Positions 20,154 to 52,057 of a stretch of DNA of 64,000 nt are shown piece after piece (position 1 is the first letter of the stretch; each line of letters opens with the position of its first letter). Location of the stretch: assembly GCA_045537815.1 (NCBI GenBank), contig JAZSQD010000127.1, positions 28,949 through 92,948 on the forward strand, read 5' to 3'. The translations under genes and the position numbers were made by a program. The notes beneath the pieces are model-generated. The model worked only from the letters and a program-made list of their open reading frames with translations, was not told where the DNA came from and searched no databases. Source of the stretch: Acutalibacteraceae bacterium (GTDB lineage Bacteria > Bacillota > Clostridia > Oscillospirales > Acutalibacteraceae).

Positions 20154-20316
20154 TAAGATTTTCCTCCTTAATAAAAATTAACCGATTGTTTTATATAAAA
20201 ACAATATTATGTGGCTTCTCATACCTTTTAAACTCAGATTTCACCCAACCCCTGACCTGATTGTTAACGGCAAAAAGGGCGCAAAAGGGTATAGAAGGAC
20301 ACTATTAGTCAGTAGC

Positions 20317-20346
20317 ATTATAGCATTGTGAAATCAATAAAGTCAA
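20317..20346 (-). promoter_or_regulatory. Putative sigma-A promoter of the 2596-aa gene
   Basis: On the minus strand: TTGACT (20346-20341), an 18-nt spacer, then TATAAT (20322-17). This leaves a leader of roughly 160 nt before the SD. Confidence 0.5.
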
Positions 20347-20436
20347 TAACGGAATATGAAAACTTTTATAATTATTAAAAATTTGTGTCATTTTACAAAA
20401 AAGGCAGAGGCTCTTTGTTTATTTTGATGTAACCTT

Positions 20437-20465
20437 AAAAATCCCGATTGTAGTCGGGATTTTTT
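20437..20465. terminator. Bidirectional hairpin terminator downstream of the HAD gene
   Basis: Sequence aaaa-atcccga-ttgtag-tcgggat-ttttt. Confidence 0.75.
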
Positions 20466-20527
20466 CATACACAATATATGGTTTTTAAGCTGTATCTATG
20501 GTAGGCGTAACCGATATTTTTATCTTA

Positions 20528-21196
20528 TTACCGGATGTCACGGGCACCGTCACATAAAATGATATTCAATACAGCCTGCGCATCCCCGGCAATATAATCT
20601 GCCCCGGCCTCAATAAGCTCTGCCCTGTCGCGGAAGCCCCAGGTGACACCGATGCAGGGAATTCCTGCATTTTTTGCCGTCTGAACATCAACCTCACTGT
20701 CCCCTATATATATAGTATAGGGTTTTTCACTACCGAGAGCCTCAATAGACCTGAAAGCATTCCTCGGCGAAGGCTTTCTTTCACTCTCATCGCTGACACC
20801 GAGTGCGCAGTCAATAAGTCCCTTAAAATAATCGTCGCATAAGCCCTCAACCGCTGAGTGAAGCTTGTTTGAAACTACTGCAGTTTTAACTCCCCTTATC
20901 CGAAGCTCTGTAAGAAGGCCCGGTATCCCCTCATAGGGTGCAGTGCTGTCTGACATATGCTCAAGATAGTGAGCTCTGAAAGCATCAAGACATTTCTTTT
21001 CCGTTTCTCTGTCCGTTCCCTCAGGCACGGAGCGTTCTATGAGCTTTACGACACCGTTACCTATAAACCGGCGTATTTCCTCAAGAGACCTTTCGGGGAA
21101 GGAAAACTCCCTGAGAGCAAAATTAACCGATGCGTGAAGGTCGGCGAGAGTATCAAGAAGGGTGCCGTCAAGGTCGAATATTGCCGTGTTATACAT
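20528..21196 (-). CDS. HAD-IA family phosphatase (phosphoglycolate phosphatase / PpaX-like)
   Basis: DLDGTLLDT motif I, SNK motif and GDSEVD motif. The track ORF starts at 21223, but the ATG at 21196 (MYNTAIFDLDGT) has an AGGAA SD and matches the usual family N-terminus. Confidence 0.85.
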   Translation of the reverse strand: MYNTAIFDLDGTLLDTLADLHASVNFALREFSFPERSLEEIRRFIGNGVVKLIERSVPEGTDRETEKKCLDAFRAHYLEHMSDSTAPYEGIPGLLTELRIRGVKTAVVSNKLHSAVEGLCDDYFKGLIDCALGVSDESERKPSPRNAFRSIEALGSEKPYTIYIGDSEVDVQTAKNAGIPCIGVTWGFRDRAELIEAGADYIAGDAQAVLNIILCDGARDIR

Positions 21197-21215
21197 TTTA
21201 TCATTCCTTTTATAT

Positions 21216-21737
21216 TCATTCACAGTAAAAGCAATCCGCTTCCCATTTCTGTGCTTTGTGTTCTATATATTCCCATATTTTCAGGTAATCCTTTTCGTCG
21301 CGAATAACGTGGTCGTGAAAAGACCGTTGCCAAACAGGAATATTCCCCATTTTTTCTCTGATCTGTTTTGACGAATTCATTTTAATATAACCCATGACCT
21401 TTGATATCACGGACCGTTTCTGTAGGGGCGATTCACGAATCGCCCGCAATGCCTCTGAATCCTCAATAACAACTATCATATGAAAATGATTTGGCATTAT
21501 TATATATTTCTCGATTTTTACACCCAGTCTTTCCGGCAGGTTTTTTATTACACGGTCGAGAAATTCACCTGCACCCGTCATCACTGTTTCGGGCGATTGG
21601 TGAATCGCCCCTACGGATTTAACGTGACACAACAGCTTTCTCTTGTTATGTGTGCATACTGTTATAAATTATGCGCCGGGGGAGCTGTAATCGTAATTTT
21701 TCAGTCTGTTGGGCTTGCGCTCGGGTAAATCAGTCAC
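21216..21737 (-). pseudogene. RayT-like REP-associated tyrosine (HUH/Y1) transposase, interrupted by an in-frame TAA
   Basis: Hand translation from GTG 21737 gives MTDLPERKPNRLKNYDYSSPGA*FITVCTHNKRKLLCHVKSVGAIHQSP...IIMPNHFHMIVVIE...WQRSFHDHVIRDEKDYLKIWEYI. TAA at 21671-21669 sits where the family has the Tyr of the GAYF motif. The track reports only the downstream 138-aa part (21216-21632). Confidence 0.7.
21422..21614. repeat. Inverted pair of REP-like hairpins (GTAG plus palindrome) inside the RayT-like coding sequence
   Basis: GTAGGGGCGATTCACGAATCGCCC lies on the plus strand at 21422-21445. GTAGGGGCGATTCACCAATCGCCC lies on the minus strand at 21614-21591. They encode RAIRESPLQ and VGAIHQSP respectively and bracket the HUH segment. 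Confidence 0.8.
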
Positions 21738-21930
21738 TTCTACACCTTCTCGATTTCGGCCTTGCGATATATTATACATCAGCCGGCCTTTATTTTCAAT
21801 AAAACCCTATACATATTATATATGGTATTTACAGGTATATCACAGACAGCCGTGAATCGCCCTCCGGTTTCTGCCGCATCACTCCGATTTGCGCGGGCAA
21901 TGCCTTGCTTCTTCCTCCCGCATCGGTACA

Positions 21931-22019
21931 TGACTACTTACTACTTGCTACTGACTACTCGGACGGCCAATGGCCGCCCCTACTCCCTATTCCCTAATCC
22001 CTAATCCCTGATCCCTGAT
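21931..22019 (-). repeat. Composite repeat: (TGACTAC-like)x4, a REP hairpin, then (CCCTNNT)x6
   Basis: Heptamers tgactac ttactac ttgctac tgactac at 21931-21958. REP at 21960-21983 (reverse complement GTAGGGGCGGCCATTGGCCGTCCG). Heptamers ccctact ccctatt ccctaat ccctaat ccctgat ccctgat at 21978-22019. This is the inverted partner of 24574-24663. Confidence 0.9.
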
Positions 22020-22022
22020 AAG

Positions 22023-22050
22023 AAAAAGGACGGCATCAGCCGTCCTTTTT
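22023..22050. terminator. glgP terminator (bidirectional hairpin)
   Basis: Sequence aaaaa-ggacggc-atca-gccgtcc-ttttt, directly abutting the glgP stop at 22052. Confidence 0.85.
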
Positions 22051-22051
22051 C

Positions 22052-24457
22052 TTATCTGATTGTTCCTGTATGCCAGATATCTCTTGCGTAATCGTTGATT
22101 GCACGGTCAGCTGCGAAGCGGCCTGCGCCTGCAATATTCATAAGAGACATTCTGTTCCAGCGGTCTCTGTCCTTCCATACGGTGTCGATATACTTCTGCT
22201 TCTTTCTGTAATCGGCGAAGTCTGCAAGCACCATATAAGGATCGTGATGAATAATTGTGTTTCCGATTTCGGGGAACTGCTTGCCGTTTATACCCTTCTG
22301 AATGAAGTCGATAACCTTGCGAAGCTCAGCGTTGTTGTTATAGTAATTCATGGGCTGATAGCCTCTGTTCTTAAGGTCAACTGCTTCGGGAGTAGTCATA
22401 CCGAAAAGGAACATATTGTCATCACCCACAGCCTCGTGGATTTCTACGTTTGCACCGTCAAGAGTACCGAGAGTGAGTGCGCCGTTTATCATAAACTTCA
22501 TATTACCTGTACCGCTTGCTTCGGTACCTGCAAGAGAAATCTGCTCACTGATGTCTGCGGCGGGCATAAGGGTTTCAGCCATTGATACGTTGTAGTCCTC
22601 GAGATAAACAACCTTGAGTCTGCCTCTCATATCGGGATCGTTGTTGATAAGGTTGCTGAGAGCACAGATCATTTCGATAATCTTCTTTGCAACGAAGTAG
22701 CCTGAAGCAGCCTTTGCGCCGAAGATATATGTGTGAGGTACATAGTCGCCGTCGGGATTTTCCTTGATTTCGAGATATCTTGCGATAATCTGAAGTGCGT
22801 TGAGGTGCTGACGCTTATACTCGTGAAGTCTCTTTACCTGAACGTCAAAAATTGAGTTGGGGTCAAGCTCGATGCCTGTCTTAGCCTTAACGAGCTTGAT
22901 AAGCTTCTTTTTGTTGCTGAGCTTGATTGCTTCAAGCTTGTCAAGTACCTTCTTATCGTCTGCAAACTTCTGTAATTTAAGAAGCTCATCTGCCTTATAA
23001 ACAAAGCCGTCACCGATAAGCTCTGTGATAAGAGCGGTAAGCTCGGGGTTTGACTGACAGAGCCAGCGTCTGTGAGCGATACCGTTTGTAACATTCTTAA
23101 ACTTGTCGGGTGTGAGCTGATAGTAATCGTTGAATACTGTATCCTTAAGAATCTGACTGTGAAGAGCAGATACGCCGTTAACGCTGTGGCAGGCAGCAAC
23201 ACAGAGGTTTGCCATTCTGATAACACCGTTTGAGGTAACTGCCATATTCTCAACCTTACCTGCATCGTGAGTCATTTCCCAGACGTGTGAACGGTAGCGG
23301 TTGTCGATTTCCTTAACAATCTGATGAATTCTGGGAAGAAGGCTCTTGAAGAGGTCCTCGGGCCAGCATTCAAGTGCTTCCTTCATAACGGTGTGGTTGG
23401 TGTAAGCGCAAGCCTTTGATACAATGTTCCATGCATCGTCCCAGCCGTAGCCGCATTCGTCAAGAAGGATTCTCATAAGCTCAGGAATTGCAAGTGTGGG
23501 ATGAGTATCGTTGATGTGTACTGCATTCTTCTCTGCAAAGTTTTCCATTGTGCCGAAGTGGCGAAGATGTCTTGCAACGATATCCTGCACTGAAGCGGAA
23601 ACAAGGAAGTACTGCTGCTTGAGACGAAGGCTCTTACCCTCGTAGTGTCCGTCGGAGGGGTAGAGAATCTTGCTGATAACCTCAGCCATAGCCTGCTGCT
23701 CCATAGCCTTCATATACTGACCCTGGTCAAAGAGTCTCATATCAAGGGCAGGTGCAACGCTCTTCCAGAGACGGAGGATTGAAATACCCTTGCCGTCCTT
23801 ACCGCTGACATACATATCATAGGGAACAGCAACGATTGTCTGTGCATTTCTGTGCTCAACGCCGTGGTAGTGGTTATCCCAGGTGTCAACGATTTCACCG
23901 CCGAACTTAACCTCAACGGTATCCTTTTCTCTTGCCTTGAGCCATACCTCGCCGCCGGGAAGCCAGAAGTCGGGAAGCTCTGTCTGCCAACCGTCTATAA
24001 GCTTCTGCTTGAAGATACCGCATTCGTAAAGAATACTGTAGCCCATACCGTAGTAGCCCTGAGTTGCAAGACCGTCAAGATAGCAGGCTGCAAGTCTTCC
24101 GAGACCGCCCTTGCCAAGACCTGCATCAGGCTCGCACTCATAAAGCTTTTCAAGGCTGATGCCCATATCCTTGAGAGCGGCAGTAAAGGTCTTTGTAAGA
24201 TTAAGATTATAAAGATTATTCTTGAGAGAACGGCCCATAAGGAATTCCATTGAAAGATAATAAATCTTCTTCTGAGTCTGATTGCCCTTTTCTTTTCTGA
24301 ATTCACGAAGACCGTCGTTCATAAGCTCTCTGACAATGAGAGAAACAGCCTTGTAGTACTGCTCGTCGGTAGCCTCGTTGGAATCAACACCGAAATAGTG
24401 TGAAAGCTTACCCTCGATAAGCTCCTTCGCTTGTTTCTTTGTAAGGGAATAATTCAT
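22052..24457 (-). CDS. glgP: Glycogen/alpha-glucan phosphorylase
   Basis: 801 aa with the LSMEFLMGR motif, the PLP-lysine motif EASGTGNMKFMINGALTLGTLDGANVEI, and an SD GGAGG. Confidence 0.95.
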   Translation of the reverse strand: MNYSLTKKQAKELIEGKLSHYFGVDSNEATDEQYYKAVSLIVRELMNDGLREFRKEKGNQTQKKIYYLSMEFLMGRSLKNNLYNLNLTKTFTAALKDMGISLEKLYECEPDAGLGKGGLGRLAACYLDGLATQGYYGMGYSILYECGIFKQKLIDGWQTELPDFWLPGGEVWLKAREKDTVEVKFGGEIVDTWDNHYHGVEHRNAQTIVAVPYDMYVSGKDGKGISILRLWKSVAPALDMRLFDQGQYMKAMEQQAMAEVISKILYPSDGHYEGKSLRLKQQYFLVSASVQDIVARHLRHFGTMENFAEKNAVHINDTHPTLAIPELMRILLDECGYGWDDAWNIVSKACAYTNHTVMKEALECWPEDLFKSLLPRIHQIVKEIDNRYRSHVWEMTHDAGKVENMAVTSNGVIRMANLCVAACHSVNGVSALHSQILKDTVFNDYYQLTPDKFKNVTNGIAHRRWLCQSNPELTALITELIGDGFVYKADELLKLQKFADDKKVLDKLEAIKLSNKKKLIKLVKAKTGIELDPNSIFDVQVKRLHEYKRQHLNALQIIARYLEIKENPDGDYVPHTYIFGAKAASGYFVAKKIIEMICALSNLINNDPDMRGRLKVVYLEDYNVSMAETLMPAADISEQISLAGTEASGTGNMKFMINGALTLGTLDGANVEIHEAVGDDNMFLFGMTTPEAVDLKNRGYQPMNYYNNNAELRKVIDFIQKGINGKQFPEIGNTIIHHDPYMVLADFADYRKKQKYIDTVWKDRDRWNRMSLMNIAGAGRFAADRAINDYARDIWHTGTIR

Positions 24458-24573
24458 AAAAAACCTCCAAAATTGTCTATGAAAAAGTGCTTGTTTTTCA
24501 ATTTATATGGTTATTTTATACTAAAATTGAAGAAAAATCAACAGTAAGAGAGAAAAAAGTTAAGACTTTATGA

Positions 24574-24950
24574 ATTAGGGACCAGGGATTAGAGATTAGT
24601 TGTAAGGGTCAAGGGAGTAGGGGCGGCCATTGGCCGTCCGAGTAGTCAGTAGTCAGTAGTCAGGGAAACGCCCGTTGGGCGTTTAATGGTGTGAGCCGAT
24701 TTATGCACTTAAAATAAAACCTCTCCCGTAGGGGAGGGCCTGTGTGCCCTCCCGGACAACTTGACGGGTAGGTGTATTTAACGGTTAACTCGGACGGTCG
24801 CCGTGGGCGTCGACCGCTACAATCTACCACTTAGATGCTGCACAAAACTTACCTCTGCGGAAAGAAACATAAATCGGTCAACGTAGTTACCCCGCGACCG
24901 CACCTATTCCCTAGTCCCTAATCCCTAGTCCCTAGTCCCAAGCCCCTGAC
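24574..24950. mobile_element. 377-bp non-coding composite element bounded by inverted G-rich/C-rich heptamer arrays (MITE/BIME-like)
   Basis: Left end: attaggg-type heptamers (24574-24623), REP GTAGGGGCGGCCATTGGCCGTCCG (24617-24640) and (AGTAGTC)x3 (24641-24663). The interior carries hairpin aacgccc-gtt-gggcgtt (24667-83), REP GTAGGGGAGGGCctgtgtGCCCTCCC (24728-53) and an inverted REP (24791-24820). Right end: ccctagt ccctaat ccctagt ccctagt (24909-24950). No ORF is present. Confidence 0.75.
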
Positions 24951-24952
24951 TA

Positions 24953-24983
24953 ACAAAAAAATTGCACCCGAAGGTGCAATTTT
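24953..24983. terminator. glgA terminator
   Basis: Sequence aaaaaaa-attgcacc-cgaa-ggtgcaat-ttttt, abutting the glgA stop at 24984. Confidence 0.85.
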
Positions 24984-26411
24984 TTATTCAGCAATAACCT
25001 GCTTATACATCTTGATATATTCACTTGCGCTCTTGCCCCAGCTGTAATCGCATTCGATTGCACGGACAACAAGAGTATCCCAGTATTCTCTGTTCCAATA
25101 AGCGTCAAGACCGCGTCTTATTGCACCGAGCATATCGTGGGCGTTGTAGGTCTTGAAGGTGAAGCCGTTACCCTCGCCGTCGCCGCTGTCTGTGATTGAG
25201 TCACGAAGACCGCCTGTCTCACGGACGATGGGTACAGTGCCGTAACGGAGAGCTACCATCTGCGAAAGTCCGCAGGGCTCACTCTTGGAGGGCATGAGGA
25301 AGAGGTCTGCACCTGCATAAATCTTTCTTGCAAGAGAGGGAACAAAGCCAATCTTCACGCCCATCTTGTCGGGATACTTAGCAGCCATTTCCTTAAAGAA
25401 ATTCTCATACTGCCAGTCACCTGAGCCGACGATAGCAAACTGCACATCTGTTGTGTAAAGAAGCTCGTCAAGAATACCCTTGATAAGGTCGAGTCCCTTG
25501 TGGGAAACAAGTCTTGAAACAAGGCCGATAACGGGTACGTCTGCTCTTTCGGGAAGACCGAGCTCCTTTTGAAGCTCTGCCTTACAAGCCGCCTTGCCTT
25601 TCTTTACATCCTTTACGGTGTAATTCTTTGCAATAGCCTTATCTGTTTCCGGGTCATAGTTGATAACATCGATACCGTTGAGAATACCCTGCAGCTTCCA
25701 CTGACGCTCACGCAGAATAGTATCAAGACCGTGGCTATACCAGGGGTCGAGAATCTCGTTTGCATAAGAAGGAGAAACTGTTGTGACCTTGTTTGCACAT
25801 TCGATTGCGCCCTTCATAAAGTTAACGTCGCCGTCGTATTCAACAAGACCTGCCGCTTCGGGAGTAAGACCGATAACATCGTTTACAAGCTCCATACCGT
25901 AGGTGCCCTGATACTGAATGTTGTGAATGGTGAATACGGTCTTTATGCCGTGGTACCAGGGGTCCTTACTGTAAAAGGCTGAGTAGAACACGGGTGTAAG
26001 TGCGCTCTGCCAGTCATTACAGTGAATAATGTCGGGCTTGAAATCGATAACGGGAAGAATCTCAAGCACGGCACGGGCAAAGAAGGTGAATCTTTCCGCA
26101 TCGTCATAGTGGCCGTAAATGGTATCTCTCTTGAAATAGTACTGATTATCGATAAAGTAGTAGATGACGCCTTCGTGCTTTGCCTGGAAGATACCGCAGT
26201 ACTGTCTTCTCCATGCAACAGGAACCGAAATGTTTGTGATAAATGTCATCTTATCCTTAAGCTCCTGCTTGATTGTGTCATACATCGGCATAACCACTCT
26301 GCAGCCGATGAGTCTTTTTCTTAATGCCTGGGGGAGTGAGCCTGCAACATCACCCAGACCGCCGCTTGCCATAAAGGGCAGGGCTTCGCTGGTTACGTAT
26401 AATACTTTCAT
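24984..26411 (-). CDS. glgA: Glycogen synthase (ADP-glucose type)
   Basis: 475 aa, starting MKVLYVTSEALPFMASGGLGDVAGSLPQAL, with GT5/GT1 C-terminal motifs. Confidence 0.95.
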   Translation of the reverse strand: MKVLYVTSEALPFMASGGLGDVAGSLPQALRKRLIGCRVVMPMYDTIKQELKDKMTFITNISVPVAWRRQYCGIFQAKHEGVIYYFIDNQYYFKRDTIYGHYDDAERFTFFARAVLEILPVIDFKPDIIHCNDWQSALTPVFYSAFYSKDPWYHGIKTVFTIHNIQYQGTYGMELVNDVIGLTPEAAGLVEYDGDVNFMKGAIECANKVTTVSPSYANEILDPWYSHGLDTILRERQWKLQGILNGIDVINYDPETDKAIAKNYTVKDVKKGKAACKAELQKELGLPERADVPVIGLVSRLVSHKGLDLIKGILDELLYTTDVQFAIVGSGDWQYENFFKEMAAKYPDKMGVKIGFVPSLARKIYAGADLFLMPSKSEPCGLSQMVALRYGTVPIVRETGGLRDSITDSGDGEGNGFTFKTYNAHDMLGAIRRGLDAYWNREYWDTLVVRAIECDYSWGKSASEYIKMYKQVIAE

Positions 26412-26434
26412 TTTATTATTTTCCTTTCAGTGAG

Positions 26435-26899
26435 GAGGAAGAAGTAGTCAGTAGCCAGTAGTCAGTAGTCAGGATTCTAGTTTAACTATAAGTGTGTTGA
26501 GCATTCTCGCAACTTCTTTGCATAAATCAAAAGCTCTATCCGCTTGTTCCTGCGTTATAAAACCCTGCCGTATACAAATTATCAATTGTGTTTCAATCTC
26601 AGCTCTTGAGCTTCTTGCCACAGACAAAAACTGACTGTACTCTTTTTTTGATTTTCTCTCATAGCCTTCTGCAATATTTGACGGGATAGAAACTGCTGCT
26701 CTTCTCATCTGATCGGAAAGAGCGAACATTTCTTCTTTTGGCAAAAGTTTTACAATCTTATAAGTTTCGTCCACTAAATCCATAGACCTCTGCCAGACTA
26801 TCAAGTCTTTGCAACCGTTTATATATCTTCACCTCGTCTCAAAATGCACCGTAGGTGCATCTCTGACTACTGACTACTGACTACTGACTACTCTTCCTC
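26435..26899. mobile_element. Inverted-repeat-flanked cassette carrying a four-helix-bundle gene, inserted in the glgD-glgA spacer
   Basis: IR-L is gaggaagaagtagtcagtagccagtagtcagtagtcag (26435-26471). The reverse complement of IR-R (26863-26899) is agaggaagagtagtcagtagtcagtagtcagtagtcag. By hand alignment the two match apart from one indel and about two substitutions. The cassette lies 15 nt after the glgD stop and about 20 nt before the glgA SD. Confidence 0.8.
26469..26804 (-). CDS. Four-helix-bundle protein (23S rRNA intervening-sequence protein / Avd-like family)
   Basis: Carries the family motifs (DL)IVWQRSMDLV...LPKEE...L.DQMRRAAVSIPSNIAEGYER.SKKEY.QFL.VARSS.AEIETQL. The only available start is a TTG inside the conserved DLIVWQ motif, with no clear SD. 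The N-terminus is therefore shorter than the family norm and the gene may be decaying. Confidence 0.75.
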   Translation of the reverse strand: MIVWQRSMDLVDETYKIVKLLPKEEMFALSDQMRRAAVSIPSNIAEGYERKSKKEYSQFLSVARSSRAEIETQLIICIRQGFITQEQADRAFDLCKEVARMLNTLIVKLES

Positions 26900-26916
26900 T
26901 GCGTTATCTGTAAAGA

Positions 26917-28026
26917 TTAAACCGTAATATTCTTTCCGACGTAAATCGGATAGGTTTCTGCGCCGCTGATTTCACGGGCGGGCTTGATTACAACATTCTT
27001 ATCAAGGATAGCACAGTTTACCTTTGCGTTGGCACTGATATAGCAGTCCTGCATAAGAATTGAGTTTTTGACAACTGCACCCTCGGCAACATATACGCCT
27101 CTCGAGAGGATTGAGTTTTCAACAGTACCCTTGATTATGCAGCCGTCGGAAACGAGTGAGCCTGATGCCTTTGAGCATATGCCGTAAATTGCGGGCATAT
27201 CGTCTCTTTCCTTTGTATAAACCGGCTTGTTTGCAGCAAAGAGATCTCTGTATTCACCTGAAAGAAGCTGCATGCTGATATCATAGTAGCTCTGGAGTGA
27301 ATCAATGGTCTTTGCATAGGAGTCAATTTTGTGGCCTCTTATCTTGAGTGTATTGACCTTAGCGGCAATTATATCTCTTTCAAAGCTCTTATATCCAAAA
27401 ATTACTAACTCACGGATAAGCTGAAGAAGGAGTGCTCTTGACATAACAATTATGTTCAGAGAATAGTCGCAGGCACTGTCTGAAGCCTCGCCTACGCTTA
27501 CTGCCGTGATTCTGTCACCGTCAAGTGTAAAGCTCATAGTGTTGTGAAGCTTGGGAGCAACACCTCTCTTATAAGCAACGGTGATATCTGCACCTGAAGC
27601 GATGTGACCGTCGATAATTTCGGTGTAATCGAGATTGCAGACAACGTTACAGTCAGCCAGAAGCACATAATCCTTACCTGACTTTGATATGTATTCGTTA
27701 ATGCCCTTGAGAGCAGCAAGTCTTCCTATGTATCCGTCAGCATATGTTGTGTTGAAGGGAGGAAGGAAGGTAAGACCGTCTCTTTTTCTTGAAAGGTCCC
27801 AGGGCTTGCCTGAGCCGAGATGGTCCATAAGTGACTGGAAGTTTGCCTTTGTGCTTACACCTACCTTGCCTATACCGCTGTTAACCATATTGGAAAGCAC
27901 AAAGTCGATAAGTCTGTATCTGCCTGCAAAGGGTACAGAGCCCATGGTGCGTACACTTGTGAGCTCACTTAAATATTCATCGTATACATTTGAATATACA
28001 ATACCTAAAACATTTGATGCGTACAT
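26917..28026 (-). CDS. glgD: Glucose-1-phosphate adenylyltransferase regulatory subunit GlgD
   Basis: 369 aa, a GlgC paralogue lacking the GGxGxRL motif and followed by left-handed beta-helix repeats. Its start shares a single nucleotide with the glgC stop codon. Confidence 0.9.
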   Translation of the reverse strand: MYASNVLGIVYSNVYDEYLSELTSVRTMGSVPFAGRYRLIDFVLSNMVNSGIGKVGVSTKANFQSLMDHLGSGKPWDLSRKRDGLTFLPPFNTTYADGYIGRLAALKGINEYISKSGKDYVLLADCNVVCNLDYTEIIDGHIASGADITVAYKRGVAPKLHNTMSFTLDGDRITAVSVGEASDSACDYSLNIIVMSRALLLQLIRELVIFGYKSFERDIIAAKVNTLKIRGHKIDSYAKTIDSLQSYYDISMQLLSGEYRDLFAANKPVYTKERDDMPAIYGICSKASGSLVSDGCIIKGTVENSILSRGVYVAEGAVVKNSILMQDCYISANAKVNCAILDKNVVIKPAREISGAETYPIYVGKNITV

Positions 28027-29240
28027 TATTTAACCCCCTCTACGTCTGTGTCGATCATTTCCTTTGCCTTGACTGCGGCACCCTTGCCGATTGTTACCTT
28101 TTCACCGATAACGGTTACGCCCCAGTTATCAAGATTTTCAATTGCCTCGGGGCTTTCACCGATGTGAGCACCCTCTTCGATAACTGCGTTTTCGGCTACG
28201 ATTGCATATTCAACAACCGCGCCCTTCTTTACTGTTGTGCCGGGCATAATGATTGAATATTTAACTGTTGCACCTTCTTCAACATTTACGTTTGAGAAGA
28301 GAATAGAGTAATCAACATTACCTGCTATGTAACAGCCCTCGCCGATCATTGAATTTTCAACCTTGGCGGTTTTGTCTGTGAAGTGGGGAGGTGCAACGGG
28401 ATTTCTTGAATAGATTCTCCAGCTGTCATCGGAAAGGTCAAGGTCAACCTTGGGATTGAGAAGATCAAGGTTTGCTTCCCAGAGACTTTCGATTGTTCCG
28501 ACGTCCTTCCAGTAGCCGTCAAACTTATATGCAAACATTCTCTCGCCTGCCTGATGCATTGCGGGGATAACGTTGTGACCGAAGTCGTTGTGTGATTCGG
28601 GGTCTGCCTCATCGTCGATAAGGTACTGGCGAAGCTTGCTCCAGGTGAAGATGTAAACGCCCATTGAAGCTTTGTTGCTCTTGGGATTCTTGGGCTTTTC
28701 CTCGAAGGCTGTGATTGAGCCGTCATCGTCTACAAACATAAGACCGAAGCGGGAAGCCTCCTCCCAGGGTACCTCAAGCATAGCGATTGTGCAGGCGGCA
28801 TCCTTTTCCTTGTGATAACGGAGCATCTTGTTGTAATCCATCTTATAGATATGGTCACCTGAAAGAACAGCTACGTATTCGGGATTGTATCTGTCGATGA
28901 AGTTGATATTCTGATAAATTGCGTTTGCTGTGCCCTTATACCATTCTGTGCCCTTAATCTGCTGATAGGGTGAAAGCACGTGAACACCGCCGTAGGAACG
29001 GTCAAGATCCCAGGGCTGACCGTTGCCGATGTAATCGTTAAGCTCGAGGGGCTGATACTGAGTAAGTATACCCACAGTTTCGATACCTGAGTTGATGCAG
29101 TTTGAAAGCGGGAAATCGATTATACGGTATTTACCGCCGTAAGGTACGGCAGGCTTTGCGATATTCTTTGTGAGTATGCCGAGTCTGCTGCCCTGTCCGC
29201 CTGCGAGAAGCATTGCGAGACATTCTGTTTTTTTGACCAT
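28026..29240 (-). CDS. glgC: Glucose-1-phosphate adenylyltransferase
   Basis: 404 aa with [43 protein letters not shown]. Confidence 0.95.
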
Positions 29241-29284
29241 TTGAATTTCCTCCTGTCGTTTTTTTATATTGGTTAATTATAAGT

Positions 29285-29480
29285 TAAGTGAGTTTTTCAG
29301 GGGATTAGGTAACCCTCTCCGTCAGATGCCTTGCATCTGCCACCTCTCCCTGAGGGAGAGGCAAGAGTAAAGCAACTTGGTAAGAAGTATCTATCTTGGC
29401 TCTCCCTTTGGGAGAGCTGTCACGAAGTGACTGAGAGGGTATCCCTTGCTACTTGCTACTTACTACTTGCTACTTGCTAC
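29285..29480. repeat. Composite intergenic element: degenerate gggattagg, a multi-hairpin CTCTCCC/GGGAGAG module, then (TTGCTAC)x5
   Basis: Closing stem accctctc (29312-19) / gagagggt (29433-40) encloses four hairpins at 29323-39, 29343-61, 29399-417 and 29419-31. The heptamer array spans 29446-29480. Confidence 0.8.
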
Positions 29481-31368
29481 TTTTCTTAGGCTTATACTTA
29501 AGCAGAGTGAAGCTGAAGCCGGGCAAATCAAGAGTGATGCTGTTATCGAAGCCGTGCATAGGCACCTTCTTTGAGGTCGCTCTCTTACTGCCCTTGCCCT
29601 CGCCGCCGAATTCCTCGGCATCAGAGGAAAGGATAACCTCGTATACACCCTCTCTTTCCACACCGAAGGAGTATTTCTCCCTCATAACCGGCGTGAGATT
29701 ACATACTGCCACAAGCTCGTTGCCTTTTTTGTCTTTTCTTGCGAATGCGATAACACTGTTCTGATTGTCGTCACTCACAAGCCACTTGAAGCCCTCCCAG
29801 CTGTAATCAATTTCCCAGAAGGCGGGATTTTTAAGATAGATGTGATTGAGCTTCTTTACATAAGCCTTGAGCTGACGGTGCTTTTCATAGCCGAGAAGCA
29901 GCCAGTCAAGCTCACTGTCATACTTCCATTCGATAAACTGACCGAATTCCTGACCCATAAAGGTAAGCTTCTTACCCGGGTGAGCCATAAGGTAGCCGAG
30001 GAATGAACGTATGCCGCTGAATTTTTCCTCATATTCTCCCGGCATCTTGCCGATAAGTGAGCATTTTCCGTGAACAACCTCATCGTGTGAAATGGGAAGG
30101 ATAAAGTTTTCGGAAAAAGCATAGAAGAAGGAGAAGGTGAGAAGATTATGGTTATACTTTCTTGAAAGACCGTCCATCGAGAAATATCTCAGGGCGTCAT
30201 TCATCCAGCCCATATTCCATTTGAAGTTGAAGCCGAGGCCGCCGATATCCGTGGGCTTTGTCACAAGAGGCCAGGCAGTGCTTTCCTCGGCAATCATCAG
30301 GGGATTTTTAAACTCGCGGAAGATACCTGAGTTAAGCTTCCTGAGAAATTCAACAGCCTCAAGATTTTCGTTGCCGCCGTACTTGTTGGCAATCCATTCG
30401 CCGTCCTTTCTGCCGTAGTCAAGATAAAGCATTGAAGCAACTGCGTCAACACGAAGTCCGTCAATGTGATATTTATCCATCCAGAAGGCGGCCGATGAGG
30501 TAAGGAAGGAAATAACCTCGTTTCTGCCGAAGTCGAATATCTTTGTGCCCCAATCCTTATGCTCGCCCTTTTTCGGGTCCTTGTATTCGTAGCAGGCTTC
30601 ACCGTCAAAGTCAGCAAGTCCGTGTTCATCTCTCGGGAAGTGGGCAGGCACCCAGTCGAGAATAACGGAAATACCGTTCTGATGACACTTATCAACAAAG
30701 TACATAAGGTCGTCGGGAGTACCGTAGCGGGAGGTTGCGGCAAAGTAGCCGATTACCTGATATCCCCATGAGCCGTCGAAGGGATATTCGCTAAGGGGCA
30801 TAAGCTCAATGTGAGTGTAGCCCATATCCTTGACGTAGGGTACAAGACTTTCGGCAAGATCTCTGTAAGAATAAGGGTTGCCGTCCTCGTGAATTTTCCA
30901 CGAGCCTGCGTGCACCTCATAGATATTCATCGGAGACTCGTAAACGTTTATATTCGCCTTTTCTTTTTGCCATTTGCTGTCCTTCCACTTGTATGATCCC
31001 AGCTCATAAATCTTTGAGGCGGTCTCAGGCCTTGTCTGTGAGTGGAAGGCATAGGGGTCGCACTTGGCTGTTTTTTTGCCCGAGGGTGCCGTAACGAGGA
31101 ATTTGTAGCAGTCATACTGCTTTACTCCTTCAAGATAGCATTCCCACATTCCCGCATCGTTGATTTTTGTCATGGTGCCCTTTGATTCATCCCAGCCGTT
31201 AAAGTCACCTATAACGCTGACCGCCGCGGCGTGGGGAGCCCATACACGGAAAGAGAAAAGCTTATCGGTAACCCTGTGAGCGCCCATGTATTCGTAGGCC
31301 TTCATATTGTTGCCCTGATGAAACAGATAAAGGGCAACATCGTCACCTTTGGGTTTCTTTTCTGTCAT
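29470..31368 (-). CDS. glgB: 1,4-alpha-glucan branching enzyme
   Basis: 632 aa with a GH13 catalytic core ([28 protein letters not shown]). Its last codons, AGT AGC AAG TAG, lie inside the AGTAGCA heptamer array. Confidence 0.95.
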
Positions 31369-31606
31369 TGTTACACCTCTCTTTAAAAAAAGATAGTTCT
31401 ACACATAGTCCATAATATCACTAATGTATCGGGATTTCAATAGTTTTTTGTTATTCTGTTACAAGTTGATAAATCTTCCCCTAAATCTTTTGTATAATTT
31501 TACCTAATATTTTCCACATGGCAGGGGCTGATTCTTGCAAATGACGATGTTGTGTAATATCTAATGGTTTTTTTCTCTCTACTTTTTAATAAAAGGCAAA
31601 ACTAAA

Positions 31607-31639
31607 GAGCCGGTTATCGGTGTTACCCGATCCGGCTCC
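31607..31639 (-). terminator. Terminator of the TIR-domain gene
   Basis: On the minus strand: ggagccgg-atcgggtaacaccgat-aaccggctc, followed by tttagttttgcctttt. Confidence 0.7.
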
Positions 31640-31667
31640 TTAAGCTTTTTAAGCAGATATTCAACTC

Positions 31668-34151
31668 TTAATCAAAAAACATGCGTCCGTCTTCAGAATG
31701 GTTAAGCGCTTTAAAGAATTCATCCTCTGCAATAAGGCTGAGGAATGCTTGATGATCTCTTTCGATTCTTCCGCCCTGGAAAATACCGTAAATGTAGGGA
31801 TATCCTGTTACAGGCTCGTCGCTTGAATACATATATTCAAAGTTCTTTGCAAAGAAGACTCTTGCTCTCTCGTCGCCCTGCTCATTGATGAAATAAATTG
31901 AAACGGTGTCAAAGAAGCAGTTTTCAAAATCAATTGTCTCATAAAGCTTCTTTGAAGCAGCAACCATGTTCTCAGGAAGCTTTTCGTCAACGGCGAAGTC
32001 TAGACCTATTCTGAGATTTCCGCCGATTTCTTCGATAAATCTTACAGGGTAGGCTTCTTCTATTATCTTGCGGGTTTCTTCCTTAAGGAAAACATCTCCG
32101 AATTCCTTGTCTTCCTCGCTGAAGGTGTAGCCCTCAAGAGTGAGATAAATATCAAGACTGTTTTCATATATCGCCAGAGCAAGAGCAGGAAGCCAGCTGC
32201 TGTTTTCCTCAGCACCCTCAAGACAGGTGAAAACAAAGCTGTCACCCTCAACCGCCTTTGCTCTGAGAATGGGCATTGTCGAGGTTTTATCGACTATATA
32301 GATTTCATCCTTGCCCTCTGCCTGTGCCGCCTTGCAGAGATTTGCAAAAAGAGTCTTGTCACCTTCGGTCATGGCAGTGACCTTAAGTGCGGTAACACCG
32401 TCCGCCTCAGTAAGCTCAACATATTTATCCTTGCTGTAGGATATGGGAACAGAAGCCTGGGTATAGCCTGCGATAAAGGAAATTCCCGTTGAGCAAAGCA
32501 CTGAAAGAACACCGTTGTTGAGCTTGTCGGGTGACATCTTTACAACAATGAGATAGGGATCATTGATTCCGTAGCCGAGGGCGTAGGGCTCACCGAAGGT
32601 ATCAAGTCGGTTTTTAAGGCTTGTTAAGGTGTCAAGCCATTTGCCTTCGGATACGTTACCGTATTCTGAGCCACGGTAGCTCACGGAAATGGTTTCACCC
32701 TTGATTTCACTGTAGTTTTTCTGATTTGCACCGAAAAGTGCGCCCTCTTCAGACTTTTCCCAGTGGGCTGCAATATCTATATTTACTATAAGACTTGCGG
32801 CTGGATGCTCTGTGGTCATGTTGTTGATAAGCACCTCGTTGAGAGTGGGATGTCTGTCATCGTTGAGAATATAATATACGCCCTGCTTGTCTGCCTTGTA
32901 GGTGTCAAAATAGTAATAGCTGTCCGTCATTTCCACCTTATCCTGAGCAAACACAAGCTCATCGCCGAAAATCTCTATTTCTTCTTTGTTTTTCTTAAGG
33001 TAATCTGACTTGAGCACTACCTCTATGTATTCATAATTTTCCTTGTCCTGTACATTGTCTTCGTTAATCTCAGGCTCCCCGGGTATTTTACCCTTGAGAA
33101 GCTTAACCGACTCGATGTTTTCGGGGGCTACCTCTATCTGAGCTACCTCGGGAGCTTCGCTTGACCAACGGTTAGTTGTAAGATAAAGCCTTGCGGCTCT
33201 TGAAACATAGCACTTGATCATATCGGTTGCGGTAAGCTCACCGAAAAGCTCAAAGGGAACGATAAGGTCAACCGTATCACCCTCAACCTTTATTGAATAC
33301 CTCTGCCCGTCAGCAATAATATCCATTCTGTCCTTTACGGTTTCAGAGGCGGTCTTGAATTCTGCGGCGGTCATATTTTCGGGTGCGCTGAGAACGATAT
33401 GATATTTATACTCCATATCTGAGTACCAGAGATAATTATCGAGAGCAACCGCACCTGCAGAAACACCGATAACACCGACGAAGGCAAGGGCAACGATGCC
33501 GCCTGCCGTGGTTTTATTAATTCTAAACCCCTTAAGAGCTTTTTTTCTGAAAACAAACAGAGGGATAAAGCCGATTACAGCCGCAATAACAGCCCCGATA
33601 AGCTTAACCGCCATACCGAAGGACGAAAATACAACAAGATAAGCGGCGGCGGCAGCGCAAAGCCAGAGCCAGATAACAGAAAGAGTAAGCTTAAGACCGT
33701 AAAGCGGTTTTTTCGGCTTCTTATCATCTTCTTCGTCATCCTCATCTTCTCTATCAGGCTTAGGCACAGCCTTTTCAATATCGCTTACAAGCTTTGCCAC
33801 TCTGGAAGCATCGTACTGGAACATGCAGTGAATTGTGGCAAGATAATACTTGATGGTATCGCTGTATTCAGAATCGTCAAGCCTTATGGGGATAACGGGC
33901 ACCTGATTTTCAATAGCAAGCTGGATTTCACGGCTGACCTGACCCGAATGGTTTGAGTTGCCGCTTGAAAGGAAAAGAAAAACCGAGGAGTTCATAATAG
34001 CCTTTGAAATTTCACCCGCCCATTCCTTACCGTAGGGAATATCTCTGGGTGCAATCCAGCATTTCATATCGTTACTTTCAAGAGCGTCACAAATTATGGT
34101 TGCCGTTTTCGAATCCTTGCTCGAATGACTGATAAAAATTCTTTTCTCCAT
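31668..34151 (-). CDS. Membrane-anchored TIR-domain protein: N-terminal TIR, acidic linker, three predicted TM helices and a roughly 590-aa C-terminal ectodomain
   Basis: The N-terminus IFISHSSKDSKTATIICDALESNDMKCWIAPRDIPYGKEWAGEISKAIMNSSVFLFLSSGNSNHSGQVSREIQLAIE fits the bacterial TIR_2 pattern (FISxS...W...G..W...I.....S..S..S.W...E), with the candidate catalytic Glu at residue 75. Hydrophobic segments are LKLTLSVIWLWLCAAAAAYLVVF, MAVKLIGAVIAAVIGFIPLFVF and GGIVALAFVGVIGVSAGAVAL. Confidence 0.8.
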   Translation of the reverse strand: MEKRIFISHSSKDSKTATIICDALESNDMKCWIAPRDIPYGKEWAGEISKAIMNSSVFLFLSSGNSNHSGQVSREIQLAIENQVPVIPIRLDDSEYSDTIKYYLATIHCMFQYDASRVAKLVSDIEKAVPKPDREDEDDEEDDKKPKKPLYGLKLTLSVIWLWLCAAAAAYLVVFSSFGMAVKLIGAVIAAVIGFIPLFVFRKKALKGFRINKTTAGGIVALAFVGVIGVSAGAVALDNYLWYSDMEYKYHIVLSAPENMTAAEFKTASETVKDRMDIIADGQRYSIKVEGDTVDLIVPFELFGELTATDMIKCYVSRAARLYLTTNRWSSEAPEVAQIEVAPENIESVKLLKGKIPGEPEINEDNVQDKENYEYIEVVLKSDYLKKNKEEIEIFGDELVFAQDKVEMTDSYYYFDTYKADKQGVYYILNDDRHPTLNEVLINNMTTEHPAASLIVNIDIAAHWEKSEEGALFGANQKNYSEIKGETISVSYRGSEYGNVSEGKWLDTLTSLKNRLDTFGEPYALGYGINDPYLIVVKMSPDKLNNGVLSVLCSTGISFIAGYTQASVPISYSKDKYVELTEADGVTALKVTAMTEGDKTLFANLCKAAQAEGKDEIYIVDKTSTMPILRAKAVEGDSFVFTCLEGAEENSSWLPALALAIYENSLDIYLTLEGYTFSEEDKEFGDVFLKEETRKIIEEAYPVRFIEEIGGNLRIGLDFAVDEKLPENMVAASKKLYETIDFENCFFDTVSIYFINEQGDERARVFFAKNFEYMYSSDEPVTGYPYIYGIFQGGRIERDHQAFLSLIAEDEFFKALNHSEDGRMFFD

Positions 34152-34185
34152 TTTTACTCTCCGTAAAAGTTATTTGATAAACCCG

Positions 34186-34214
34186 ATTATATCACAGTCC
34201 TTCAGGTTTGACAA
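34186..34214 (-). promoter_or_regulatory. Putative sigma-A promoter of the TIR gene
   Basis: On the minus strand: TTGTCA (34214-09), a 17-nt spacer, then TGtgaTATAAT (extended -10; TATAAT at 34191-86). Confidence 0.55.
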
Positions 34215-34225
34215 GTGCTTGAGGA

Positions 34226-34464
34226 GGGATTAGGGATTAGGGATTAGTAGCAAAGGTAAGGGTTTTGATATTAGTAGTCAGTAGCCAGTAGCCAGTAGTC
34301 AGGGGAACGCCCGTCGGGCGTTTAATGGCGTAAGCCAATTCATGCCTCCGAGCAAAAATGATACGGTAGGGACACGGCTCGCCGTGTCCGCAAACCTGAC
34401 CGATAAATATATTTAATTTAACACGGTAGGGGCGTCCGTTGTGTCGTCCGAGTAGTCAGTAGTA
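34226..34464 (+). repeat. Composite repeat: (GGGATTA)x3, (AGTAGTC/AGTAGCC)x4, a conserved backbone, two REP hairpins and a second AGTAGTC stub
   Basis: Coordinates are gggattagggattagggattag at 34226-50 and the AGTAGTC array at 34273-34300. The backbone 34294-34346 matches 24657-24709 with 7 mismatches in 53 nt (hand alignment). REPs are GTAGGGACACGGCtcGCCGTGTCC (34366-90) and GTAGGGGCGTCCGttgtgtCGTCCG (34426-50). The stub agtagtcagtagta is at 34451-64. Confidence 0.85.
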
Positions 34465-34470
34465 AGGAAC

Positions 34471-34540
34471 TAATGGCGTGAGCCAATTCATGCCATAGGC
34501 AATTCATGACAAGGTCAATTCATGGCGTAGCCAATTCATT
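34471..34540 (+). repeat. Mini-hairpin array A: four 11-12-nt hairpins separated by ATTCA
   Basis: Hairpins are tggc-gtga-gcca (34474-85), tgcc-ata-ggca (34491-501), tgac-aag-gtca (34507-17) and tggc-gta-gcca (34523-33). Each is followed by attca. Confidence 0.9.
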
Positions 34541-34576
34541 CCATACAATATTATTGAGGGACCGGCAGCCAACAAC

Positions 34577-34659
34577 TGACCGCAGGTCAATAACACTATG
34601 CGAAGCGTAATATCACTGCATAGCAATAAAACTGCCGAGTGTCCTTGCGGACACTCGGC
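34577..34659 (-). repeat. Mini-hairpin array C (short copy) ending in the MFS gene terminator hairpin
   Basis: Order on the plus strand: tgacc-gca-ggtca, ATAACACT, atgc-gaa-gcgt, AATATCAC, tgc-ata-gca, ATAAAACT, gccgagtgtcc-ttgc-ggacactcggc (34634-59). This is near-identical to 38691-38788. Confidence 0.9.
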
Positions 34660-34676
34660 TAGCAGGGAGCTGTTTA

Positions 34677-51142: not shown

Positions 51143-52057
51143 ATGGAAAACAATTCAAATAACTCATGGAGCTTCTTAAAAGATGATGTTATGAAGGGCC
51201 TTGCAATTGCTCTTGTTGTCGTCTTTCTCTTCTCAACAGGTAACATTCTCGGTTCTCTTATGAATGTTAAGACAACAAGCACAGACGTTGATGCAGAGGT
51301 TACAACAACTGCACCTACAACTGCTCCCACAACAGCTCCTACAACCGCTCCCACAACAGCGCCTACACAGGCTCCCACAGACGCTCCCTCAGGCGGCGAC
51401 ACAACAGCTCCCACACAGGCTCCCACAGATGCTCCCTCAACAGGCGCACCTCAGTCAAAGGCTGAAATCATTGCTTACTTCAATGAAAGCGCAGACAAGG
51501 TTAAGACAGATGCAACAAAGGTTGTAAGAAACTACGAAGACCTTCGTCACAATGCTGATAAGCTTGTTCTTCCCAAAGCTCTTCAGTCAATCGGTGAAGG
51601 CCTTATCTCAAGCTTCCTCAAGAAGAACGAAACTCCCGTTGAATATGCAACAAACGCTGATATCGTTGCTTCATATCCCGTTGCAGGTCAAACATGGTCA
51701 AGTAAGCTCACAGAAGCTGATGTTGCTGAAGCTACCTGCAATGACAACGGCACTGAATATGAAATCATGATTAAGCTCAACACATCAACAGACCCCGCTG
51801 CAGGCACAGGCGCAGCAGCAGCTTTATCAACAATTAAGACTGAAGATGTTATGGATGCAGCAGGCTTCGTTGTTCAGAGCTTCTCCGCTGAATATTATGA
51901 TTCTGTAATCAAGTGCAAGATTGACAAGGCTACAGGCCGCACCACATGGTCAAACTACACACTTCCCATCCTTCTCAGAGTTGAAGCTAAGCTCTTCGGC
52001 ACACTCCATGCAGAAGTTGGTATGACCTTTGAACACGACTACACAATTACATACTAA
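51143..52057 (+). CDS. Membrane-anchored extracellular protein with a (T/Q)APT-rich linker
   Basis: ATG 51143 follows AAAGGAAAGGAAA. The N-terminal anchor is GLAIALVVVFLFSTGNILGSL. The linker is TTAPTTAPTTAPTTAPTTAPTQAPTDAP..TTAPTQAPTDAP, then a globular domain of unknown family. Confidence 0.65.
   Translation: MENNSNNSWSFLKDDVMKGLAIALVVVFLFSTGNILGSLMNVKTTSTDVDAEVTTTAPTTAPTTAPTTAPTTAPTQAPTDAPSGGDTTAPTQAPTDAPSTGAPQSKAEIIAYFNESADKVKTDATKVVRNYEDLRHNADKLVLPKALQSIGEGLISSFLKKNETPVEYATNADIVASYPVAGQTWSSKLTEADVAEATCNDNGTEYEIMIKLNTSTDPAAGTGAAAALSTIKTEDVMDAAGFVVQSFSAEYYDSVIKCKIDKATGRTTWSNYTLPILLRVEAKLFGTLHAEVGMTFEHDYTITY

Follow-up and report, generated by a model that had tools for sequence, protein, structure and literature searches.

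A four-helix-bundle gene between inverted heptamer arrays in the glgD-glgA spacer: a candidate intervening-sequence-like cassette in an mRNA operon

Why does a small gene, enclosed by two inverted arrays of tandem heptamers, lie in the middle of a glycogen operon? The gene is located between glgD and glgA of an Acutalibacteraceae bacterium (contig JAZSQD010000127.1), within a 64,000-nucleotide stretch of DNA that was analyzed as a whole and is called the window below. It encodes a four-helix-bundle (4HB) protein, and the original prediction regarded the gene and its repeats as a cassette resembling the intervening sequences (IVSs) of 23S rRNA. On balance, we favor the reading that the locus carries a promoter-less cassette, resident in an mRNA operon, that belongs to the same class as those 23S rRNA IVSs which contain an open reading frame (ORF). 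Positions are those of the window, and homologous or related loci are denoted by L numbers.

The analysis confirmed the initial observation, and the cassette occupies the whole glgD-glgA spacer. The core arms at 26443-26472 (AGTAGTC, 4.3 copies) and 26863-26892 (CTGACTA, 4.3 copies) are 30 nt each, 97% complementary and separated by 390 nt. They are lengthened by 8 bp through GAGGAAGA/TCTTCCTC to 26435-26472 and 26863-26899. On the transcribed (minus) strand, the arms can pair over approximately 37 bp with one bulged base and one G·U pair. Folding of a 501-nt minus-strand RNA spanning the spacer predicted a structure closed by the stem of the two arms, with a minimum free energy of -162 kcal/mol (z = -7.5). 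The repeat search and the folding thus bear out the arm coordinates and the stem that had been proposed. The stop codon of the 4HB gene lies inside the 3′ array and, as claimed, is the first TGA of this array (26471-26469). Two distances had to be corrected: the glgD stop codon is 17 nt (not 15 nt) from the 5′ arm, and the 3′ arm is about 8 nt (not about 20 nt) from the glgA Shine-Dalgarno (SD) sequence and 24 nt from the glgA ATG. The 14-mer TGACTACTGACTAC, with two or fewer mismatches, occurred 14 times against 0.28 expected.

With 4.3 copies of an intergenic 7-nt unit on each side, the arms qualify as heptamer arrays of at least three copies, similar to the short tandemly repeated repetitive (STRR) sequences. 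The complementary termini, whose pairing would enclose the element with a stem of about 37 bp, are those of an IVS. IVSs of 23S rRNA are inserted in helix 9, 25 or 45; this location does not apply here, and no rRNA match was found at positions 20000-36000 of the window. Just inside the 5′ arm lies a GC hairpin. At the same position, compensatory variants occur in L083 (GCCC-UUCG-GGGC), L092 (GGUCGGC-GGA-GCCGACC) and L094 (GGUGCC-UUUC-GGCACC). The hairpin was rejected as a family-wide feature, being confined to the type-A clade defined below, and as an intrinsic terminator, because the U-tract is missing in relatives. Scanning of the window region and the homologue loci against Rfam gave no family over the arms or the inner hairpin.

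The 4HB ORF spans 26469-26804 from a TTG start and can be extended to 26822, so that the product has 111-117 amino acids. It matched PF05635 (“23S rRNA-intervening sequence protein”) with 5.5e-39 and 133.1 bits (cut-off 33.8) and TIGR02436 (“four helix bundle protein”) with 1.4e-38 and 131.5 bits (cut-off 24). Members of these families have about 110-125 amino acids and are related to solved four-helix-bundle pentamers. The closest relatives found in the PDB, from which the fold is assigned by sequence match, were 2GSC (Xanthomonas XCC0516; 2.2e-22) and 2RLD (5e-07). The window protein and 23 homologues share an invariant SxPSNIAEG motif. Weak matches were also obtained to the side of Avd, the accessory protein of diversity-generating retroelements (DGRs): PF22296 with 1.7e-08 and the PHROG entry “Avd protein of DGR” with 2.3e-10. 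The score for the Avd equivalog NF033474 was 34.1 bits, below its cut-off of 80, and the protein is not classed as Avd. No reverse transcriptase adjoins the gene, whose neighbors in the window are glgB, glgC, glgD, glgA and glgP. No PADLOC defense-system model matched. Judging from the profiles, the window protein belongs to PF05635/TIGR02436 and is distantly related to Avd, in agreement with the family first proposed.

Against its counterpart in L083, the 4HB gene has a dS of 1.63 and a dN/dS of 0.075, while the dS of the flanking genes is 0.39-0.68. The synonymous divergence of the gene is thus 2.4-4 times that of its flanks. These rates of substitution show purifying selection on the 4HB protein; the protein is therefore functional, with a history unlike that of its neighbors.

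The IVS of Coxiella burnetii, 428-444 nt in length, lies in helix 45 of the 23S rRNA and contains an S23p (PF05635) ORF (PMC4990558). Its terminal stem has 28 bp and is cut internally by RNase III in vitro, and the ORF is preceded by two or three GACAGAT heptamers (PMC4990558). The copy number of the repeat differs between strains, and the ORF was described as decaying (PMC4990558). An ORF-bearing IVS is also present in the 23S rRNA of Leptospira, as cited in the same paper (PMC4990558). The window cassette shares the S23p family, a similar length (~465 nt), a terminal inverted repeat (~37 bp versus 28 bp), heptamers that form the 5′ side of the stem (UAGUCAG versus GACAGAT), and an SD-like sequence close to the repeats. 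Thus, the geometry is IVS-like, as had been claimed. In contrast, the host RNA is the mRNA of a glycogen operon instead of helix 45 of 23S rRNA, the cleavage by RNase III in vitro is known for the Coxiella element alone and is predicted here, and the window protein is under strong purifying selection, whereas decay was described for the Coxiella ORF.

To begin with the simplest alternative, the arrays might be ordinary slippage-prone repeats that came to lie around a small gene by chance, their inverted layout being meaningless. Heptamer arrays are indeed common here (eight were detected in the 64-kb window, all between 21.9 and 34.3 kb), and heptamers are over-represented in some bacteria (PMC4692102, PMC4679880). 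However, the ungapped inverted-repeat score of the cassette was 27, whereas the maximum among same-size pseudo-genes in the window was 12 (n = 122).

The family-wide comparison also speaks against chance. We scanned one genome per species and obtained 80 homologue loci with 42-63% protein identity, from Clostridia, Bacteroidota, Planctomycetota, Acidobacteriota, Chloroflexota, Proteobacteria, lineages of the candidate phyla radiation and others. For 79 of them, the flanking 250 nt on the two sides of the gene were compared, and the arm score was that of the best inverted repeat without gaps; 285 shifted controls were used. In 52 of these 79 independent loci, the score exceeded the maximum of all controls. 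Almost all arms were arrays of period 7, and their median length was 24.5 nt. Complementarity averaged 15.9 for a locus's own arms and 7.7 when arms were swapped between loci (p = 5e-36). The heptamer is specific to the locus (TAGTGGT, TAGGGAC, CAGATGC, TAGGCAA and others), and the two arms of one locus match; read from the sequences, this is covariation at the level of the whole repeat unit. Among the typed heptamers, AG was found in 43 of 45 and TAG in 25 of 45. Arms were also seen around the 4HB gene in viral contigs and, of four cyanobacterial plasmid copies inspected, in three. A check of 40 homologue loci found none within an rRNA gene. These comparisons show that an inverted heptamer bracket surrounds most of the sampled homologues across phyla, so that the window cassette is not the only copy flanked by inverted repeats. 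The chance explanation is contradicted by the window controls, the swapped-arm test and an array copy number that stays constant (described below) despite saturated synonymous divergence, and we give it almost no weight. Viral contigs were also considered as the main reservoir of the family, and this was rejected, since 21 matches were found in them compared with more than 593 in genomes.

The original prediction allowed that the cassette could be a mobile unit, and we therefore collected glgD-glgA spacers from relatives. Cassettes with AGTAGNC arms are called type A, and those with T[C/A]GGAAT arms type B. Approximately 70 distant relatives (GlgD identity 45-55%) have an empty spacer without the 4HB gene, in which glgA begins 7-53 nt after glgD. 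A close relative, L119 (GlgD 89%), also has an empty spacer of 29 nt, TAAGGCAAAACCCGGAAAGGAAAACATTTACTATG. Since its first bases, TAA(A)GGCA, are common to the distant relatives, the L119 spacer is taken as the ancestral empty site. Type-A cassettes, whose proteins are 73-99% identical, occupy the spacer in L081-84, L091-97 and the window. In L085 and L088, the same spacer contains a type-B cassette with a PF05635 protein that is 25% identical to that of type A. On a tree of GlgD and GlgA, the two types alternate in both clades; therefore, at least two replacements or independent gains are required. L086 has neither type between glgD and glgA, but its genome has a type-A cassette elsewhere, in the interval from recF to remA/gyrB. 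L120 and L122 have gene-less heptamer inverted repeats of other types in this spacer. By comparison of these spacers, the cassette is shown to be a derived insertion into a spacer of about 30 nt, after the glgD stop codon and before the glgA SD sequence, which turns over at this site and occurs at another locus too. The suggestion of a mobile unit is thus supported by the empty sites, the alternation of types and the recF-gyrB copy, and the spacer content is far from conserved in all relatives (type A, type B, gene-less and empty states). The high identity of the cassette to that of L081 was rejected as a sign of recent transfer, as it is part of a larger recombination tract of 97-100% identity.

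These spacers also bear on a second alternative, in which the cassette is a domesticated, vertically inherited regulator of the glg genes that no longer moves, and the stem (perhaps with the protein) sets the glgBCD:glgA ratio. Type A does persist in this spacer down to a GlgD identity of ~76%, and constraint is seen on the protein as well as on the arms and the inner hairpin. However, the same cassette family is found in recF-gyrB, in cas6-cas4 and in bccP-XCC0516, and in 23S rRNA according to the literature. Moreover, the spacer of a close relative is ancestrally empty, an unrelated 4HB cassette takes the place of type A in L085 and L088, and the dS of the 4HB gene differs from that of its flanks as described above. 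We consider the domesticated regulator improbable.

The cassette points in the same direction as its host operon. Among the homologue loci, 52 have both neighbors in the direction of the 4HB gene, and 6 have both in the opposite direction. No consensus promoter was found between glgD and the 4HB ORF. Thus, the co-orientation together with this result points to expression by read-through, with both arms on one transcript. In 32 of 46 loci, the upstream gene ends in or near the 5′ array: its stop codon falls within the array in 20 and no more than 10 nt away in the other 12. This stop codon is TAG in 20 of the 46 loci. Since UAG recurs every 7 nt in the 5′ array of the window, all three frames are closed there; UGA likewise recurs every 7 nt in the 3′ array. 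Therefore, such an array can end any interrupted reading frame.

In the reading of an IVS-like cassette, the unit consists of a 5′ array of four heptamers, an SD sequence, the 4HB gene and a 3′ array of complementary heptamers. It would be transcribed by read-through from the glg promoter together with glgBCD. The two arrays would then pair in the transcript into a ~37-bp duplex at the base of a 390-nt loop that contains the ORF. RNA duplexes of this kind, near-perfect over 37 bp, are canonical substrates of RNase III, and cleavage is predicted here by homology with the Coxiella IVS, which is cut in vitro. By the same analogy, the cut would set free a 4HB mRNA whose ends are paired and would divide glgBCD from glgA. 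The stem may draw the flanks of the insertion together, and UAG or UGA at every seventh nucleotide may halt translation in three frames. With joined flanks and all frames stopped, an insertion could be tolerated both within an rRNA helix and downstream of almost any gene. The tandem design would also allow the pairing to tolerate slippage. As a guess from the analogy with Avd, the 4HB protein might bind nucleic acid, possibly its own arms.

The arms are strongly conserved. In type A, a length of exactly 30 nt is kept, with 27-30 of 30 positions identical, while third codon positions are 51-56% identical. Five other type-A cassettes, of which four share the site and one (L090) lies in recF-gyrB, match the 5′ 30-nt array at 28-30 of 30 positions. 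Only the sixth base of AGTAGNC varies among the type-A copies. Deviating units on one arm reappear as their complements on the opposite arm, often shifted by one unit (L083, L090, L091 and L094). The comparison of type-A copies thus shows that the arms are under purifying selection.

Several points weigh against the reading of an IVS-like cassette, the first of which concerns this conservation. The type-A arms keep their sequence and copy number far beyond what pairing needs. Sense-strand wobble pairs were not in excess among arm mismatches (G·U 48 versus A·C 59, p = 0.33). Thus, the complementarity could be kept by a process at the DNA level or by sequence recognition. The wobble test lends no support to RNA-level selection, nor does it exclude it. 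In addition, the formation and the cleavage of the stem at the window locus are themselves predictions.

These results lead to the main alternative, which is compatible with the reading that we favor. The arrays may act mainly on DNA, as terminal inverted repeats or as tandem sites for a trans-acting recombinase or transposase or for the 4HB protein, which would mobilize or duplicate the cassette as well as its gene-less derivatives; the RNA stem would be incidental. Besides the wobble test, this explanation accounts for arms fixed at 30 nt in length and kept in sequence while synonymous sites are saturated, and for the AG/CT dinucleotide conserved in 43 of the 45 heptamer types. The offset complementary variants fit templated copying. 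Nearby gene-less arrays match the type of the local cassette in 6 of 22 cases (3.9% expected), cassettes turn over at one site, and an ORF resembling REP-associated tyrosine (RAYT, Y1) transposases and hairpins with GTAG, similar to repetitive extragenic palindromic (REP) sequences, adjoin arrays in the window. However, no recombinase gene was noticed beside the cassette at the annotated or gene-called loci that were inspected, the 80 genome loci not having been screened for one, and the 4HB fold has no known catalytic activity. Furthermore, an orientation bias of 52 to 6 is not predicted for a symmetric DNA element, and protein similarity barely follows heptamer type (Mantel r = 0.075, p = 0.055, among sampled proteins of only 45-60% identity). 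The last signal was too weak for co-evolution of protein and heptamer to be claimed as arm recognition, and this candidate was rejected. We regard action on DNA as possible but rather doubtful, and the domesticated regulator and chance as less likely still.

The second point against an IVS-like cassette concerns mobility. Neither an integrase or transposase nor a target-site duplication was seen. Comparison of the filled site of the window with the empty L119 site gave no direct repeat around the arms, although the flanks of the two sites have diverged. The cassette itself contains no transposase, and the RAYT-like ORF is 5 kb away. Therefore, the term “mobile” rests on comparative patterns only. 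Since the cassette is kept in many relatives of two clades, it is apparently not moving often.

The third point concerns translation. The authors of the Coxiella study considered that S23p is probably not made in vivo (PMC4990558), and in the window gene, the canonical ATG is missing at the expected position. Translation could start at ATA (26822-26820) or at TTG (26804-26802). The ATA lies 6 nt after GAGGUGA and aligns with the residue that follows the initiator Met of the homologues. The canonical ATG is also missing in L083 (3042) and in the L092 spacer. Where the N-terminus of the homologues begins, an Ile codon is found (ATA in the window, ATT in L083 and ATT ATA in L092), and it stands at SD distance in the window and L083. 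Because the ATG is missing yet purifying selection is strong, these sequences suggest that the copies without ATG use a non-canonical start and are translated at a low level.

The favored cassette can also be compared with other known elements. Correia repeat enclosed elements (CREEs) have 100-150 bp, are found in a single genus and show a TA target duplication. In Neisseria, RNase III can bind and cleave the CREE hairpin, with changes in the expression of adjacent genes (PMC2649163). CREEs are bounded by inverted repeats, intergenic and co-transcribed with their neighbors (PMC2649163), and the window cassette resembles them in these respects, although its co-transcription is inferred. In contrast, CREEs are non-coding with unique terminal repeats, whereas the cassette has a conserved gene, arms of tandem heptamers and a family that crosses phyla. 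Integron cassettes have a single 3′ attC and require the IntI integrase and an attI platform. The window cassette is similar to them as a small, promoter-less and co-oriented ORF driven from upstream between imperfect inverted repeats; unlike them, it has neither an integrase nor a cassette array. With the Avd of DGRs, the protein probably shares the four-helix-bundle fold superfamily, as judged from sequence, but it scores below the Avd cut-off and adjoins no reverse transcriptase. To our knowledge, DGRs have not been described as having inverted heptamer arms.

Heptamer arrays themselves are well known. The cyanobacterial STRR heptamers were reportedly described by Mazel et al. in 1990. Other examples are GGGAATC in Xanthomonas and GGGGA(C/T)T in Nostoc (PMC4692102) and TAACTGA in Beggiatoaceae (PMC4679880). 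Xanthomonas has 70-75 convergent array pairs (PMC4692102). One GGGAATC array overlaps the start of XCC0516, the crystallized 4HB protein 2GSC, beside bccP (PMC4692102 supplement). Like the arms described here, these arrays are intergenic tandem heptamers, often in convergent pairs; unlike the cassette, most arrays in the Xanthomonas, Nostoc and Beggiatoaceae genomes are gene-less. They were treated as G-quadruplex or translational-control motifs, and no link to 4HB proteins was drawn (PMC4692102, PMC4679880). In a full-text literature search, outside which most subscription journals lie, we found no paper tying heptamer arrays to the 4HB family and no statement that heptamers generally bracket PF05635 genes outside rRNA. 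Thus, the ORF-bearing rRNA IVS, the 4HB fold and the heptamer arrays are each already known separately, and the family-wide link between them appears to be new.

Three puzzles have been separate so far: the IVSs with ORFs in 23S rRNA, the role of the 4HB/S23p proteins, and the commonness of tandem heptamers. Our results suggest that they are facets of one element, a small gene in inverted heptamer arrays that inserts behind stop codons, in the direction of transcription, in expressed operons. A bolder generalization, which we put forward tentatively and think unlikely to hold in full, is that PF05635 genes with their arrays constitute an unrecognized pan-bacterial mobile operon cassette. The classic 23S rRNA IVS would then be the special case that landed in rRNA. 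The STRR, GGGAATC and TAACTGA arrays and the gene-less arrays of the window would be non-autonomous derivatives or footprints, and an Avd-like 4HB protein would process or spread the arrays, as RNA or DNA. Tractable carriers are XCC0516 of Xanthomonas by bccP, the cas6-cas4 copy of Anabaena sp. 90 and the Nostoc copies. For annotation, such cassettes split operons and give spurious ORFs across the arrays.

In Anabaena sp. 90, the cassette (L199) lies between cas6 and cas4 on plasmid pANA02 (NC_019429.1, 43680-45209). Its 5′ array consists of ~340 nt of CAGGTGA/CAGGGAA heptamers. A large-scale CRISPR screen names “23S rRNA IVP” among the array-associated proteins (PMC10910872). An insertion of this kind into a cas operon, with arrays that look CRISPR-like, may explain this association.

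Table 1. Positions of the cassette parts, the glg genes and the heptamer arrays in the window
Feature	Position	Strand	Remarks
glgB	29470-31368	minus	
glgC	28026-29240	minus	
glgD	26917-28026	minus	Upstream host gene; TIGR02092, 340 bits
5′ arm on transcript	26863-26899	minus	GAGGAAGAG + (UAGUCAG)x4; IR-R of the original prediction
GC hairpin just inside 5′ arm	26844-26860	minus	AUGCAC-C UACG G-UGCAU
SD-like sequence of 4HB gene	26829-26835	minus	GAGGUGA
4HB gene	26469-26822	minus	PF05635/TIGR02436
3′ arm on transcript	26435-26472	minus	(CUGACUA)x4 + CUUCUUCCUC; IR-L of the original prediction
glgA SD sequence	26421-26428	minus	
glgA	24984-26411	minus	Downstream host gene; NF001898, 642 bits
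glgP	22052-24457	minus	
Gene-less TGACTAC-like array	21931-21959	plus	Composite with REP-like hairpin and CCCTAAT array (to 22019)
Gene-less (AGTAGTC)x3 array	24641-24663	minus	Within inverted composite copy (24583-24663)
Gene-less AGTAGYC array	34271-34302	minus	Adjoins AGGGATT array
Further short AGTAGYC-type copy	34452-34465		
CCCTAGT array	24903-24947		glgA-glgP spacer
CTTGCTA array	29445-29482		glgB-glgC spacer
AGGGATT array	34221-34247		~34.2 kb, upstream of glg genes

Heptamer arrays occupy every intergenic spacer of the glg cluster in the window (Table 1), and no 4HB genes or remnants were found under its gene-less arrays. The glgB-glgC spacer also contains hairpins of the “CCTCTCCC...GGGAGAGG” kind. 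The glgP gene lies between 81-nt inverted repeats with 85% complementarity (21937-22017 and 24583-24663), and each copy combines two arrays, one of the TGACTAC type and one of the CCCTAAT type, with a REP-like GC hairpin (GGACGGCCAATGGCCGCCCC). A third composite copy, without the hairpin, is located at 34215-34310. In L081, a contig of the same species, glgA is followed by a different gene instead of glgP, so that a break in synteny coincides with the arrays.

The RAYT-like ORF (21216-21632, minus strand, 138 amino acids) matched NF047646 with 1.5e-16, below the cut-off, and PF01797 with 3e-08. It adjoins heptamer arrays and GC hairpins flanked by GTAG (such as 24617-24640 and 34436-34452); this tetramer is also part of the type-A heptamer AGTAGTC.

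In the distant relative L154 (2245-2608), the glgD-glgA spacer contains a different ORF of ~82 amino acids without a Pfam match, preceded by AATTCAT/AATGCAT heptamers. This sequence suggests that heptamer arrays can accompany other small genes.

A sub-threshold match to Gut-1 RNA (RF01706) was obtained at 34570-34634 on the minus strand, with 36.3 bits against a gathering threshold of 50 (E = 5e-4). This stretch adjoins a 16-nt tandem repeat (34484-34545) and heptamer arrays. A further tandem repeat at 51305-51441, with 12/24/48-nt periods (ACAACAGCTCCT and variants), is unrelated and presumably corresponds to a low-complexity coding linker.

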